From the IMG/VR virus record IMGVR_UViG_3300032309_002614, positions 1 to 64,000 of that record: 64,000 bases of DNA. One strand, 5' to 3'. Shown here piece by piece: positions 53,526 through 59,533 of the stretch. Position 1 is the first letter of the stretch. Each line of letters opens with the position of its first letter. The notes beneath the pieces were generated by a model that was given only the letters and a program-made list of their open reading frames with translations, ran no database searches and was not told where the DNA came from. Source of the stretch: a virus. Lineage: Duplodnaviria; Caudoviricetes. The translations under genes and the position numbers were made by a program.

Positions 53526-53552
53526 AAAGCCCCCAGAAATGGGGGCTTTTTT
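53526..53552 (+). terminator. Intrinsic terminator
   Basis: AAAGCCCCCA-gaaa-TGGGGGCTTT-ttt. Confidence 0.85.
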
Positions 53553-53557
53553 GCGCC

Positions 53558-53585
53558 TTGACATCTTCCGAAAATCTGATATCGT
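53558..53585 (+). promoter_or_regulatory. Sigma70-like promoter of uvsE
   Basis: TTGACA-16nt-TATCGT with TG extension; ATG 53593. Confidence 0.6.
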
Positions 53586-53592
53586 GACCAAA

Positions 53593-54534
53593 ATGAAATA
53601 CGGACTCGTTTGCATTTCGGAACTTTTGCGGGATAAAAATCCCGAATTGGCGTTCAAGACTATGACTCGTACTCAATTCCTTAAAAAGAATCGTGACGAA
53701 TCTATCGCTGAACTTTCTCGCCGCATCTCCCATAATCTTACAGTTACGCTTGAGACTATAAAGCACTGCAAGGAAGTTGGTATTAAACATTATCGTTTGT
53801 CTTGTAAGTTGTTTCCTCTTGTTACTGATCCTACTTTGAAGATTCAAGTGGAATTACTTCCATATTGGAATGTGCTTGAACAAAAGTTAATGGAGATTGG
53901 TCGAGTTGCGCGTGAACTAAATATTACAATGTCAATTCATCCTGATCAGTTTGTCGTTCTTGGTTCTGACTCCGATGATGTTTGTGCAAAATCTATTGCT
54001 GAATTGAATTTTCATGCTTGGGTGCTTGACCAAATAAAGATGCCGCAATCGCATCTATGCCCGATCAACATTCATCCTAGTTTGTCCAACTTTGAATCTG
54101 TTCAGAAATTTGTAGATAAGTTTGTGCGTAATTTCTTTCGATGTGATATCGGTGTTCGCAATAGACTTGTAATTGAAAATGAACATCATGCGTTTTGGAA
54201 TTGTAATAATTTACATGAATACTTTCATAATTATATGAAACACACTTATAATTTTTATTTTCCACTCACACTTGATAATCTTCATGATAAATGCAATCCT
54301 AGTTATGATACCAATAATAACATCATTCCTTACGAGAAACATTTTATTAAGTTTTATCAAACATGGTCTGTTATGCCAGTTTTCCACTGGAGCGAAAGTG
54401 ATGATAATTCATTTAAACACGCAAAAAAAGTAATTAATCCTCCTGTGGATCTTGGTTTAGATTGCATTTATGAAATGGAATACAAAGCTAAAGATAAAGC
54501 TTTCATTCATCTAATCAAGCAAATTGCTAATTGA
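53593..54534 (+). CDS. uvsE: UV-damage endonuclease (UvsE/UvdE)
   Basis: MKYGLVC, HYRLS..LFP, SIHPDQF, INIH, LVIENE, LDNLH, FHWSE; start moved from 53539. Confidence 0.9.
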   Translation: MKYGLVCISELLRDKNPELAFKTMTRTQFLKKNRDESIAELSRRISHNLTVTLETIKHCKEVGIKHYRLSCKLFPLVTDPTLKIQVELLPYWNVLEQKLMEIGRVARELNITMSIHPDQFVVLGSDSDDVCAKSIAELNFHAWVLDQIKMPQSHLCPINIHPSLSNFESVQKFVDKFVRNFFRCDIGVRNRLVIENEHHAFWNCNNLHEYFHNYMKHTYNFYFPLTLDNLHDKCNPSYDTNNNIIPYEKHFIKFYQTWSVMPVFHWSESDDNSFKHAKKVINPPVDLGLDCIYEMEYKAKDKAFIHLIKQIAN

Positions 54535-55038: not shown

Positions 55039-55112
55039 GCATCATTAGCATAAAAGTAATGTTCCTGTTTTCCAAACAGGACAAATCGGGGCAGTACCGA
55101 TATGATGCTCCA
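55039..55112 (+). tRNA. tRNA-Gly(TCC) with non-canonical D and T loops, encoded CCA
   Basis: GCATCAT/ATGATGC acceptor, T73, CCTGT-ttTCCaa-ACAGG, ATCGG-GGCAGTA-CCGAT. Confidence 0.85.
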
Positions 55113-55117
55113 ATTTC

Positions 55118-55402
55118 ATGACTCATAAATTTGCAGTAATTGTAGATAAAAAATCATACTATAAACTTCAACAAGAAGATGATTTCTATTTGCGAGTTAT
55201 GATATTAGATATAATAAGAGTATTGTCAGATAAAAAAGAATCTTTAGAAAAATACAAAGACGATTTGTTTTATAAATGCGCTAAAAGCATCGCTAATGAA
55301 GTAAGAATGTTCGAAGATGAAAATTCAGTTATTTTTTACGCTGAATTGAGTAATGGATACCTTGATGATTTTTTTGAAAAACCCCTTGACGATTTGGAAT
55401 AA
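55118..55402 (+). CDS. Hypothetical protein
   Basis: ORF track. Confidence 0.55.
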   Translation: MTHKFAVIVDKKSYYKLQQEDDFYLRVMILDIIRVLSDKKESLEKYKDDLFYKCAKSIANEVRMFEDENSVIFYAELSNGYLDDFFEKPLDDLE

Positions 55403-55413
55403 ATCAATAAATA

Positions 55414-55419
55414 GTGTAT
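55414..55419 (+). promoter_or_regulatory. GTGTAT motif upstream of structured RNA
   Basis: Same motif; position +14 falls at the 5' edge of the RNA fold rather than at an ATG. Confidence 0.5.
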
Positions 55420-55428
55420 TATATAATA

Positions 55429-55544
55429 GATCCTACACTACCCGAGAAATCGGAGGATGAAAAATCAATTTTTAGCGGCAATCGCTAAATAGGTGCGTTT
55501 ACGCATCGTCCCTTTTTCGAGTAGTGTCGGAAAGGGGATTTTTT
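55429..55544 (+). ncRNA. Structured RNA leader/sRNA with alternative terminator and antiterminator folds
   Basis: P1 55432-41/55521-30, hairpins 55442-53, 55471-89, 55492-507; competing 12-bp hairpin 55509-38 plus T6. Confidence 0.65.
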
Positions 55545-56182
55545 ATGAAAATATGTAAAATATGTAACGCAACAGAAGATTTAATAGGATTTAGAAAAGA
55601 TCGTATAATTTGTAACGATTGTTTAAAGAAAAATAAACAAGAATATTATTTCTCTAATCTTGAAAGAATCAAAGAAAAAAGAGATCAATATAGAGAAGCT
55701 AATAGAGAAAAAATAAATACTCAGAAGAGGGAGCATTATCAATTAAACAAAGAACGATTAATAAAAAATTCTTCTGATTATAAAAAAATAATAGAAAGAG
55801 ATATAACGACTTAAAAATCAATAGAAAAAAGAATGATCCATTGTATAAATTAAGAATTACTGTTAGTGAAAGAATAAGACAAGCTTTAAAATATCATCTA
55901 GCAGGTACATACAAAAAGAAAGATTCTACTATAGAATTATTAGGTTGCAGTATTGATGAATTAAAAACTTATTTACAAAATCAATTTAAAGAAGGCATGA
56001 CTTGGCAAAATCACGGCGAATGGCATATTGATCATATAATTCCATGCGCGGCTTTCGACCTATCAAAAAAAGAAGATTGTTTAAAATGTTTTAATTATAA
56101 AAATTTACAACCACTTTGGGCGCATGAAAATCTTTCGAAATCCGACAAAATACCCATTGACAGGTTTCAAGAAATCGTCTAA
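55545..56182 (+). pseudogene. HNH-type endonuclease split by a frameshift (ORFs 55545..55814 and 55841..56182)
   Basis: CKIC..C N-terminus; -1 shift in the A7 run 55782-88 joins it to LGCSIDELK...WHIDHIIP...NLQPLWAHENLSK. Confidence 0.7.
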
Positions 56183-56185
56183 GGT
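56157..56185 (+). promoter_or_regulatory. Sigma70-like promoter of rIIA
   Basis: TTGACA-17nt-TAAGGT; ATG 56194. Confidence 0.6.
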
Positions 56186-56193
56186 CTTCGCGA

Positions 56194-58386
56194 ATGAAAC
56201 TAGATGTTGCTGATCGAATCGTTGCTACTTCGCACGATTTTCCCACCGTAAACTGCACGATTGATCCAGAAGATATGAGGTACATTTCCTCGCTTCTGCG
56301 AAATAATTATTCAAACACGATTCTTGCGACCATTCGTGAGCCTTATGCGAATGCAGTTGACGCTAATAAAGAAAATGGATTATCGCCAGAACTTATTGAA
56401 GTCAAATCCCCAACCTCTCTTGATCAGACTTTTTCTATTCGTGACTTTGGTCCCGGTTTGAGTCGCGATCAGATTTTTAATCTATATAGTAAGTTTGGTA
56501 AGTCTACAAAGCGCGATTCTAATACAAAGCTTGGAGCTTTTGGCATTGGTAAGTTCGCACCTCTTTCTTATAAAGATAGTTTTACTGTTACTTCTTATCA
56601 CAATTGTCTTAAAACCATCTATAGTATTTATATCTCAGAAGACAACGATACTAAGATCGATGAAATTTTTTCTGAAGTCACGTTAGAAGCTAACGGTATC
56701 TGCATTTCTGTAGGTGTTTCGAGCGGCGATATCAACAAGTTCAATCAGGAAATTTCTTCATTCTTTAGTAATTTTGAAGTTCAACCTCATTTCTTGAATT
56801 TGCAAGTTGACATTGCAAAGCCTGAAATCGTTGCTTCTGGTACTAATTGGCAAATTCGCAAATCTGTTAATGGTTATAATCTTTATTCAGTGGGCGAGCA
56901 TGGGATTGTAATGGGCGGCATTTATTATCCTATCAATCTTGAACTTGTTGATTTCAAGAGTGACGATGATTACGCATGGACTAAGTTTCTTAATAAGCTT
57001 GTTTTTATTGCTGATATTGGATCTGTTTCGCTGCATCACTCACGCGAAACACTTGAGTATAACAAGACTACTAAGACTTATTTGAAGTCTCGTTATCAAG
57101 CTTTCTGTAAAGAGTTTACGGATTCAATTAAGAATAAGATCGCGCAATTTGATTGTTTGCGTGATGCTATGTCTTACTATAAAGACATTAGCGAGACGTT
57201 TCCTCGAAATGCTTTTGACCGACTTCAAAATCAAAATGTTTTTGTTTTCAAAGGTCATAAAATTATTACTTGGAATTTCAATCGTCCTAGTTATGAAGAG
57301 AATGATAAAGCGATCAGGATTCCTGTTTATGCTAAAACTTATAGCTTATCTGGTGATCGTGTAGCTATTGCCAAATGTTATACTATTGGTAATGATAAAA
57401 ATACTTATATTGTATTTCATGATTTGCCAGACAATACGAAGGTCGTTCCTCGCGTTTACGAATTAGTTAAAAAATACAAAAACGTAGTCGTTGTTGCTCA
57501 CGATCAATCAATCATTAGTTCTGCTACTCTTAATGGTGTTGACAAGTTTAAAGAGGTTAATCGATTTGATCTTGTCAAGTCTGGTTACTGCAATCTTAGT
57601 GAATTGATTCCAGTAAAGCTTCCTTCTACTAAAAAAGGTTCTGCTAGTTCATATACTGCTAATTATTTTTATAAGGTTGAGAGTTGTTATTTTCGGTGTT
57701 CAAGTGTTTTTGCTAAAGAAATTAATGATAGTTCTATTACTAAACTTTATTTTCCTGTTTCTAATGGTAAACCAGTTAATAACTATTCCTTTTTTTATCA
57801 GGAAAAGAATAAACTTAATAGCTACTTTTTTAGTAAAGTAGGTAAACTATTTAATGTTAGTATTTATGCAGTATCAAATAATGTAGCCGCAACTGTTAAA
57901 TTTAAAAATCGCGCTGATTTCGTTGATATTATTAAGTATATCCAAGATAAATGGAATGCTTGTTCTGATGAAGTTAAGTCGTTGATTCTTGAATATATTT
58001 CTTGCAAGACTGATGATGGGTATAATATTATGACTTTTACTGTCATGGTTGCAGATATCGACACTTACCAAAAATACGACTACAAGCTAAATTTTTGTTC
58101 AGAAAATCTTAAGAAAGCAGGTGCGCTTGAATTTGCAGATTTTATTGAAAAATGGCGGAATGCGTTAGAAATTCTTAAAATTAACATGTCTCACGACAAT
58201 GAAACTCCAGTTTCTATCTGCGGAAAATATCTAAGACAAGCAACCGAAGAAATTTATAAAAATTATCCAATGCTTGAAATTCATGCCGACATGTACAATA
58301 GTGATCGCATCAAAAATGAATTAAAATATAAGGAGTATATTTCCTTCATGAATCAACAGAATTCTGTTGACTTTTCAGAAATTTGA
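56194..58386 (+). CDS. rIIA: rIIA-like protein (N-terminal GHKL ATPase)
   Basis: IREPYANAVDA, IRDFGPGL, FGKSTK, GAFGIG; directly upstream of rIIB. Confidence 0.8.
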   Translation: MKLDVADRIVATSHDFPTVNCTIDPEDMRYISSLLRNNYSNTILATIREPYANAVDANKENGLSPELIEVKSPTSLDQTFSIRDFGPGLSRDQIFNLYSKFGKSTKRDSNTKLGAFGIGKFAPLSYKDSFTVTSYHNCLKTIYSIYISEDNDTKIDEIFSEVTLEANGICISVGVSSGDINKFNQEISSFFSNFEVQPHFLNLQVDIAKPEIVASGTNWQIRKSVNGYNLYSVGEHGIVMGGIYYPINLELVDFKSDDDYAWTKFLNKLVFIADIGSVSLHHSRETLEYNKTTKTYLKSRYQAFCKEFTDSIKNKIAQFDCLRDAMSYYKDISETFPRNAFDRLQNQNVFVFKGHKIITWNFNRPSYEENDKAIRIPVYAKTYSLSGDRVAIAKCYTIGNDKNTYIVFHDLPDNTKVVPRVYELVKKYKNVVVVAHDQSIISSATLNGVDKFKEVNRFDLVKSGYCNLSELIPVKLPSTKKGSASSYTANYFYKVESCYFRCSSVFAKEINDSSITKLYFPVSNGKPVNNYSFFYQEKNKLNSYFFSKVGKLFNVSIYAVSNNVAATVKFKNRADFVDIIKYIQDKWNACSDEVKSLILEYISCKTDDGYNIMTFTVMVADIDTYQKYDYKLNFCSENLKKAGALEFADFIEKWRNALEILKINMSHDNETPVSICGKYLRQATEEIYKNYPMLEIHADMYNSDRIKNELKYKEYISFMNQQNSVDFSEI

Positions 58387-58423: not shown

Positions 58424-59533
58424 ATGAATAAGCCAGCATATATTGCCACTAGCAACGCAATCACGGTCATTTGGGAGGGTAAGCCTTATACGGTTAATAC
58501 CGACAATCCCAATTATACTGGACTGAAGAACGCTCTAATCAATGCAGAATACGACAGTATTGGTCGTTTTCTTGATATTAAGAAGCAAATCGAAGACTTC
58601 TCTCATGGCAGCATCAAGGTTGTCGCCGAGAAGGTTTATTATGGCAATCATGAACTCAAGGGTTTTGTAATTGATAAGCTACTTGAGTTTTTGCGCTCAG
58701 GAGCTAAGGACGCTCAACCTATTCTCAATTTTATTGAGAAGCTTATGTTCAATCCTAGTAAGAATAGTGTTGATCAACTATATACTTTTCTTTCTTATAA
58801 GACTTTGCCATTGACTGAGACTGGCAATGTTATTGGATATAAGGGTGTTAATTGTCTTTACTATTCTCATCGTGGCAATACCAGTACTGTTGTCATTACT
58901 GGCACTGTAGATAAAAATGGTCGCATTCTTAATAAGATTGGCGAGACTATTGAAGTCGCTCGTAATAGTGTTGATGATAACAAGGACAATCATTGTTCTC
59001 ACGGTCTACACGTTGGCAGCTATGATTATGCAAAGGATTGGGCTGATAACGACGGCCATCTAATGATGGTTGAATTCAATCCTTCAGATGCAGTTAGTGT
59101 ACCTACTGATTGCAACTTCCAGAAGCTTCGTGTTTCTAAGTACAAGGTCATTGGAGAAGTTCCTTTCGAGCGTGTTAAGGAAACTGAAGCTCCGCTCAAT
59201 GAGCCTTATTACAACACTGATAAAGAAATCAGCGTTGATGATGACAGTAATGATTGTTTCGACGGTTGTGGTTGCAATATCAACGAAGGCTATGAATATA
59301 GTGATGCTACTATTCTTGCCATTAAGAATTACGTTGAGGGTCGCGTTGAAGGTGGAACACCTGCTACCCTCAAGTCCATTCAGTCCCGCCTAAAAGGAAC
59401 GCATATCACTTGTCAAGAAATCAAGGATATTTGTTTGGATCTAGGATTTACCGTTCATGAAGATGACAACATTGCTTTGTCTAATAGTCTTGTAACTATT
59501 GTGACAATCAGTGAAAAGTCTGACTATCAGTAA
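58424..59533 (+). CDS. rIIB: rIIB-like protein
   Basis: NPSKNSVDQLYTFL, IGYKGV, CSHGLHVG, VSVPTDCNFQKLRVSKY. Confidence 0.85.
   Translation: MNKPAYIATSNAITVIWEGKPYTVNTDNPNYTGLKNALINAEYDSIGRFLDIKKQIEDFSHGSIKVVAEKVYYGNHELKGFVIDKLLEFLRSGAKDAQPILNFIEKLMFNPSKNSVDQLYTFLSYKTLPLTETGNVIGYKGVNCLYYSHRGNTSTVVITGTVDKNGRILNKIGETIEVARNSVDDNKDNHCSHGLHVGSYDYAKDWADNDGHLMMVEFNPSDAVSVPTDCNFQKLRVSKYKVIGEVPFERVKETEAPLNEPYYNTDKEISVDDDSNDCFDGCGCNINEGYEYSDATILAIKNYVEGRVEGGTPATLKSIQSRLKGTHITCQEIKDICLDLGFTVHEDDNIALSNSLVTIVTISEKSDYQ

Follow-up and report, generated by a model that had tools for sequence, protein, structure and literature searches.

The stretch of phage DNA analysed here (64,000 nucleotides, positions 1 to 64,000 of the IMG/VR record IMGVR_UViG_3300032309_002614, Caudoviricetes; 32% G+C; hereafter the window) encodes an HNH nuclease. 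Directly upstream of its start codon lies a structured leader RNA of about 117 nucleotides (nt) that closes with an intrinsic terminator. A first-pass annotation, made from the letters of the sequence, had proposed a structured RNA at this place. We find that it is real and unusually conserved, and that its terminator abuts the start codon of the nuclease. Judged from its presence and absence in related loci, the leader together with the HNH gene is one mobile unit of the free-standing homing-endonuclease type. With moderate confidence we favour a role for the leader as a cis-acting attenuator of this homing-endonuclease cassette. The coordinates of all features are collected in Table 1.

The minimum-energy fold of 55405-55550 reaches -45.8 kcal/mol, against -27.1 +/- 3.6 kcal/mol for dinucleotide shuffles (z = -5.26), and none of 200 such shuffles was as stable. 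Independently of our hand-built model, RNAalifold returned the same hairpins and added a 5-bp helix, P0, beneath the first of them (H1). On re-reading the sequence, the positions first given for the three hairpins H1, H2 and H3, and for both strands of a further candidate helix, P1, were all correct. The last hairpin of the leader has the properties of an intrinsic terminator: a 13-bp stem including five G-C pairs, a 6-nt loop and then T6. Its U6 tract runs up to the ATG at 55545, and the foot of the hairpin stands 5 nt before the AUG. A terminator scan flagged this hairpin as terminator-like in the window and in one relative (two loci); the tract is U5 in loci L001 and L044 and UUUUUC in L048. 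Neither strand holds an open reading frame (ORF) of note across the leader region. The 55403-55543 interval is free of tandem repeats, and the single repeat row touching the region starts at 55544, inside the ORF. A leader peptide encoded by an 11-codon ORF at 55458 was considered and rejected: the changes in codons 4-5 are all non-synonymous and third positions elsewhere are invariant, which suggests no coding constraint.

The leader is the best conserved part of its neighbourhood. All conservation counts come from nine distinct variants of the cassette, effectively one lineage. Among these, 12 of the 117 leader positions (10%) vary, against 21-28% of second and 53-68% of third codon positions in the HNH gene and 63% of positions in orf94, the gene upstream. 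In a sliding comparison the leader stands out as an island of 95-98% identity between flanks of 64-88%, and pairwise it is 90-100% identical where the HNH gene is 76-92% identical. The window and L045 have the same leader (100%), whereas their HNH genes agree at 81% of positions (71% at third positions). L048 and the bases at the predicted transcript start account for most of the variation in the leader, and the unpaired segments are as conserved as the stems.

The few substitutions respect the proposed pairing. Across the four hairpins, all 180 sequence-by-pair cells hold standard pairs. H3 shows a compensatory change from G-C to A-U at 55497/55502 plus a change from G.U to A-U at 55493 (L043, L048), and in the terminator stem a G.U pair becomes A-U at 55534 in L048 with pairing kept. 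The H1 loop changes from GAAA to GUAA in L001 and retains its GNRA class, and four neighbouring changes are confined to the linker immediately 5' of H2. The first-pass annotation had proposed covariation in homologous regions as a check. This gave one compensatory pair, in H3, whereas H1, H2 and P1 are invariant and so give no signal; the covariation score was reached by 38 of 500 shuffles. Taken together, the structural support that these substitutions appear to give is consistent but thin.

A plainer account would be that the region is a mere terminator or insulator with incidental hairpins, conserved through recent spread and gene conversion at the left end of the cassette and not through selection on the RNA. 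The mosaic blocks of near-identity inside the HNH gene and elsewhere in these genomes would fit it, as would the single known lineage and the single compensatory event. We nevertheless find it quite improbable. No other stretch is as conserved as the leader in any pairwise comparison, and even between the most distant variants its identity is 90%, compared with 65% at HNH third codon positions. The stem substitutions all preserve pairing, H1 retains its class of tetraloop, and L048 maintains the leader in a different left-hand context.

The mobility of the cassette is seen in related loci, which we fetched via the HNH protein and via rIIA, the gene downstream. The leader was found in the window, five viral contigs and six metagenome contigs, some from the same record (L025, L027, L028, L033, L037 and L043 to L048 besides the window). 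Five loci (L026, L031, L032, L035, L036) share orf94 and rIIA with the window at 79-96% identity and lack both the leader and the HNH gene; in these, 19 nt separate the orf94 stop from the rIIA ATG. The cassette therefore behaves as a present/absent polymorphism between orf94 and rIIA, filled in the window and ten fetched loci and empty in five, with flanking genes unchanged. In L048 the same leader, HNH gene and rIIA stand behind an unrelated upstream gene.

Within the searched loci the leader was always linked to the HNH gene. A covariance model of the leader (R1), searched against 33 and then 58 related loci (about 470 kb), located it solely next to HNH genes that share 75% or more identity with that of the window. 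Among these loci, R1 matched nothing near HNH relatives of at most 58% identity, whose upstream regions share no common fold. When the viral collection was scanned with exact patterns, the same five contigs came up and no others. Six matches emerged from 185,579 species genomes; R1 scores them at 15.7 bits at most, and we take them as chance, the one inspected being unlike the leader. Mimicry of an operator or target site, as in the autorepression of I-TevI, was rejected: the similarity between the leader and the empty site is not above that of shuffles. L014 (2600-2750) and L016 (300-445) also have a long hairpin, of another kind and about 70 nt in length, ahead of a distant HNH homologue (about 45% identical). 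These hairpins, at -39 and -42 kcal/mol, differ at several stem positions and are unrelated in sequence to the leader.

If the leader is an attenuator, transcription from the GTGTAT box or from further upstream would produce the leader of about 117 nt, which would fold into P0/H1, H2 and H3 and then meet the terminator. By default, most transcripts would end there as a short stable RNA. Read-through transcripts alone would carry the nuclease ORF, with its AUG close to the foot of the 13-bp hairpin. The expected outcome would be a low dose of nuclease and an rIIA gene insulated from upstream transcription; the termination efficiency, the low expression and the insulation are all predicted. Terminator and promoter scans found no promoter-like site within 55508-55544 or between the terminator and the HNH ATG. 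As the nuclease would lack its own promoter beyond the terminator, it should be producible only from read-through transcripts. The hairpin had also been described as burying a purine-rich stretch. The purine-rich GGAAAGGGG does lie in the 3' arm of the terminator, but it is unlikely to bind ribosomes because the genes of this phage lack Shine-Dalgarno sequences, none being found ahead of any gene in the window. Separately, AUGAAAAAUC in the linker (55457-55466) is 90% complementary to GAUUUUUUAU (55537-55546), which covers the U tract and the first bases of the start codon; pairing of the two in read-through transcripts could cover the HNH AUG.

Several points weigh against attenuation as a full account of the leader. 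The start of the transcript and its termination are themselves predictions. Attenuation needs only a terminator and leaves the near-invariance of H1-H3, the linkers and the loops unexplained. The phylogeny is shallow (nine variants, effectively one lineage), and repeated gene conversion at the left end of the cassette could inflate the apparent conservation, mosaic identity being visible inside the HNH gene. A nested late promoter of the kind used in phage T4 is not found within 55508-55544, and the GTGTAT box lies far upstream of the hairpin. That the unpaired segments are so extremely conserved implies some additional specific contact, which may be a tertiary pseudoknot or a bound factor. 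Because attenuation alone does not explain the conserved loops and linkers, two other readings, a factor-dependent antiterminator and a small-RNA partner of the nuclease, stay alive beside it.

The antiterminator reading starts from P1, in which CCTACACTAC (55432-41) and GTAGTGTCGG (55521-30) are complementary at nine of ten positions. The trigger would be a small ligand, a protein of phage or host, or, as with put RNA, the RNA polymerase itself; it would stabilise P1 and a four-way junction, let polymerase pass the terminator and free the start region. The P1 duplex (-10.2 kcal/mol) was reached by 37-63 of 5000 shuffles (p about 0.01, for a helix chosen post hoc) and is thus better than chance. 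In an RNA prefix ending at 55530, when the 3' arm of the terminator has not yet been made, the minimum-energy fold (-36 kcal/mol) includes P1. The junction and loop sequences never vary, much as in an aptamer or protein site, and the nuclease needs some route of expression past a strong terminator.

The first-pass annotation had gone further and described terminator and antiterminator as mutually exclusive. The clash is partial: P1 overlaps four of the 13 terminator pairs, and together with a possible 7-bp P2 (55458-64 with 55513-19) it would clash with eight. The four-way-junction state with P1 is at -31.0 kcal/mol. The hairpin state reaches -38.3 and the minimum-energy fold -41.3 kcal/mol, which makes the terminator state 7-10 kcal/mol more stable. 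Both P1 strands are invariant in all nine variants, and covariation therefore neither supports nor rejects the helix. A rod-like long hairpin that would melt H1 and H3 was rejected, since natural substitutions weaken it: L048 loses 5 kcal/mol (from -37.4 to -32.3 kcal/mol), and the L001 substitution hits one of its A-U pairs. Given this balance, a conditional antitermination switch seems to us unlikely.

Its small-molecule version, a riboswitch, is the least likely and in our estimate a very remote prospect. A scan of the leader against Rfam 15 gave nothing at the gathering threshold. At E-values up to 10 the sole match was a weak one to the L10 leader (21.5 bits, E 0.5), in whose alignment the terminator is the only base-paired part. 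The first-pass view that the leader falls outside the known riboswitch and ribozyme classes is therefore borne out by Rfam 15, while its suggestion of a ligand-responsive switch finds no support. The leader does resemble transcriptional riboswitches and attenuators in being conserved, in having a terminator just before the ORF and in having a 5' strand that can pair with part of that terminator. Unlike them, it has no known aptamer class, and its competing helix is the weaker one and overlaps the terminator marginally. We found no recurrent association with genes tied to one ligand: among the searched sequences the leader occurs only with one lineage of HNH cassette, a selfish element without metabolic gene logic and with a distribution unlike that of a metabolite riboswitch.

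The complementarity behind P1 can be read in another way. With both hairpins retained, every base of the terminator loop GUAGUG can pair with the internal loop ACACUAC next to H1, and the P1 complementarity therefore fits equally well a loop/internal-loop pseudoknot in the terminated RNA. Such a contact would suit a discrete small RNA gene whose product acts in trans or binds the Lys/Arg-rich HNH protein as antidote or cofactor. The promoter-like box and the terminator bracket the RNA exactly, its unpaired segments are conserved like its stems, the loop complementarity has a p of about 0.01, and the RNA always co-occurs with the HNH gene. The layout also recalls type III toxin-antitoxin loci of the ToxIN kind, in which a promoter, an RNA, a terminator and the gene of a harmful protein follow one another and the antitoxin RNA consists of tandem repeats. 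The order is the same here, and through the terminator the RNA would be made in excess over the mRNA. In contrast to type III antitoxins, the leader has no tandem repeats, and the protein belongs to a DNA-nuclease family and is not a ToxN-type endoribonuclease. No complementarity of the RNA to a target was identified, nor any similarity to the empty target site. The leader is intact beside a frameshifted HNH gene in the window, but this is a single recent event that proves nothing. We regard a free-standing small RNA as improbable, about on a par with the antitermination switch.

A somewhat wider proposal, which we put forward tentatively, is that the leader is a self-contained, pseudoknotted functional partner of 117 nt for the homing endonuclease, either a factor-dependent antiterminator that permits nuclease expression only during a certain state of infection, or an RNA that binds the HNH protein and restrains or guides it. 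If so, the RNA and the nuclease would together make up a mobile unit of two components, a kind for which no example among free-standing homing endonucleases has yet been described.

Attenuation, the reading we prefer, has its closest parallels in T4-type phages, whose homing endonucleases are restrained by RNA hairpins at the start region (I-TevI, I-TevII, I-TevIII, segB and Aeh1 mobE) and by terminators (mobE, segF) (PMC2988022). Common to these cases and ours are a phage homing-endonuclease gene that either follows a very stable start-region hairpin or has a 5'-proximal intrinsic terminator, and a cassette placed inside a host operon whose next gene, essential or conserved, has a promoter to itself (mobE/nrdB in T4, HNH/rIIA here). 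The layout differs, and there is no sequence homology. The T4 hairpins contain a late promoter, so that late transcripts lack the 5' arm, whereas here the putative promoter box lies 90 nt upstream and both arms would always be transcribed. The mobE and segF terminators are weak and lie inside the coding region, whereas this one precedes the AUG, looks strong and is itself preceded by about 80 nt of almost invariant structure.

For a structured RNA that accompanies such a gene there is one precedent, of a different kind. In T4, mobA is accompanied by the bypass element of gene 60 (bioRxiv 10.1101/2022.08.31.505936); there too, RNA and endonuclease form one mobile insert whose RNA part is strongly conserved. 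The gene 60 element, however, lies within a coding sequence and reprograms ribosomes, whereas the RNA described here is an untranslated leader upstream of the endonuclease. HEARO, the omega RNA of IscB, offers a further comparison, being a structured RNA directly upstream of an HNH-containing ORF. IscB has RuvC and HNH domains and about 400-500 amino acids (aa), in contrast to the 212 aa and lack of a RuvC match in our protein, and the 117-nt RNA has no match to the HEARO family in Rfam at E-values up to 10.

Homing endonucleases must be expressed highly enough to spread and weakly enough to spare the phage, and the solutions seen in T4 are short hairpins and weak terminators. In the present cassette a whole multi-hairpin RNA moves with the gene and is more conserved than the second codon positions of the nuclease, and the cassette would also rewire the promoter of rIIA. 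Should the conserved unpaired parts bind a factor or act as a switch, the leader would define a novel class of regulatory RNAs associated with selfish nucleases, and would also be a compact terminator-control module from a phage expression system without Shine-Dalgarno sequences and largely leaderless. Otherwise it would add one more neat case of how homing-endonuclease cassettes control their expression.

Table 1. Features of the HNH cassette and its surroundings (positions in the window; +, strand as given)
Feature	Position	Strand	Remarks
Leader RNA	55428-55544	+	about 117 nt, non-coding
P0 (AUCCU/AGGAU, 5 bp) capped by H1	55430-55458	+	RNAalifold consensus
Internal loop ACACUAC between P0 and H1	55435-41	+	7 nt; RNAalifold consensus
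H1 hairpin CCGA-GAAA-TCGG	55442-53	+	GNRA loop
H2 hairpin TTTAGCG/CGCTAAA	55471-55489	+	7 bp, invariant
H3 hairpin GGTGCG/CGCATC	55492-55507	+	6 bp, compensatory change
Intrinsic terminator	55508-55544	+	13-bp stem (55508-39), loop GUAGUG 55521-26, U6 55539-44
P1, 3' strand	55521-55530	+	terminator loop + 4 nt; complementary to 55432-41
Present/absent cassette, leader + HNH gene	55403-56193	+	about 790 bp; missing in 5 related loci
HNH, N-terminal part	55545-55814	+	Cys-rich and Lys/Arg-rich; cut off by frameshift at 55782-88
HNH, catalytic part	55784-56182	+	-1 frame in window; phrog_1035, phrog_28061
GTGTAT box	55414-55419	+	-10-like; predicted transcript start near 55427-55429
TTGACG, -35 hexamer of resident rIIA promoter (putative)	55386-55391	+	within orf94 3' end, stranded upstream of insert
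Replacement rIIA promoter, predicted	56158-56186	+	TTGACA-17-TAAGGT, 8 nt to rIIA ATG, inside last HNH codons
GTGTAW-N8-ATG sites	1644, 23296, 34974, 40868, 47514, 48870, 49881, 58410, 63016		
Near-variants of GTGTAW-N8-ATG	19218, 27920		
rIIA homologue	56194-58386	+	phrog_612, 2.1e-86
rIIB homologue	58424-59533		downstream of rIIA

The insertion also appears to exchange one rIIA promoter for another. In empty sites, rIIA is preceded by TTGACG, a 16-nt spacer and CATAAT, 8 nt from its ATG (a 10/12 match; L032, 2465-2492). In filled sites TTGACG stays at the end of orf94, and cassette DNA takes the place of the -10 hexamer. At the right end, all nine variants keep a pair of hexamers consisting of TTGACA (TTGACT in L048), a 17-nt spacer and TAAGGT, TAAAGT, TAGAGT or TAAATT; the L001 version, TTGACA-17-TAAAGT, scored 10/12. 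The cassette thus seems to split the old promoter of rIIA and to supply a new, sigma-70-like one of the same geometry, promoter function here being read from the hexamers.

The GTGTAT box, which the cassette carries at its left end upstream of the leader, belongs to a recurrent motif. With 1.09 +/- 1.04 occurrences expected, the window has nine copies of GTGTAW-N8-ATG, and none of 100 shuffles reached nine. The sites lie mostly at operon starts, some right after terminators, and eight relatives have preserved the one ahead of rIIB. Because its 8-nt spacing equals that of sigma-70-like -10 hexamers, GTGTAW is probably the -10-like element of a phage-specific promoter class, one whose mRNAs would be leaderless or nearly so. 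The box at 55414 departs from this pattern: it is followed by the 117-nt leader instead of an ATG, and the leader would start near 55428. In L048 it reads GTGTAA and the surrounding bases are changed. An upstream inverted repeat, TAGTGTA-N15-TACACTA, was considered as a selected hairpin or operator and rejected, as L048 differs at two positions in its left arm with no matching change in the right one, and preserves the GTGTAW core.

The HNH gene can be assigned to a homing-endonuclease family through its matches to phrog_1035 ('endonuclease VII', 1.7e-12) and phrog_28061, and blastn finds similarity to HNH endonuclease genes of Flavobacterium phages. The fragments in the window gave no significant match in Pfam, and no RuvC match was found in PHROGs or Pfam. 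All ten related loci have an intact HNH ORF of about 212 aa. The first-pass placement of the leader directly before an HNH nuclease is right as to position, with the qualification that the gene is intact in the relatives and frameshifted in the window. At 55782-88 the window reads AAAAAAA where L001 and L043 read AAAAAGAA; as a result, the ORF from 55545 stops at 55814 and the catalytic part lies in the -1 frame. Programmed frameshifting was rejected: the relatives carry AAAAAGAA and a single ORF, from which the window differs simply by the loss of 1 nt or by an error in sequencing the homopolymer. The frameshift would reflect either a decaying homing endonuclease or such an error.

Of the flanking genes, rIIA shares no more than about 27% identity with its counterpart in any cultured phage, with best matches in Vibrio schizoT4-like phages; a match to phrog_609 (4.8e-60) is listed together with phrog_612 for the rIIA/rIIB pair. 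Upstream of the cassette, a tRNA-like sequence at 55039-55109 scores 42.2 bits with the Rfam tRNA model and is not called by ARAGORN. Blastn finds none in several other close relatives, and it is 93-100% conserved in L026, L031 and L035. Further upstream lies a gene for a UvdE UV-endonuclease (53539-54534).

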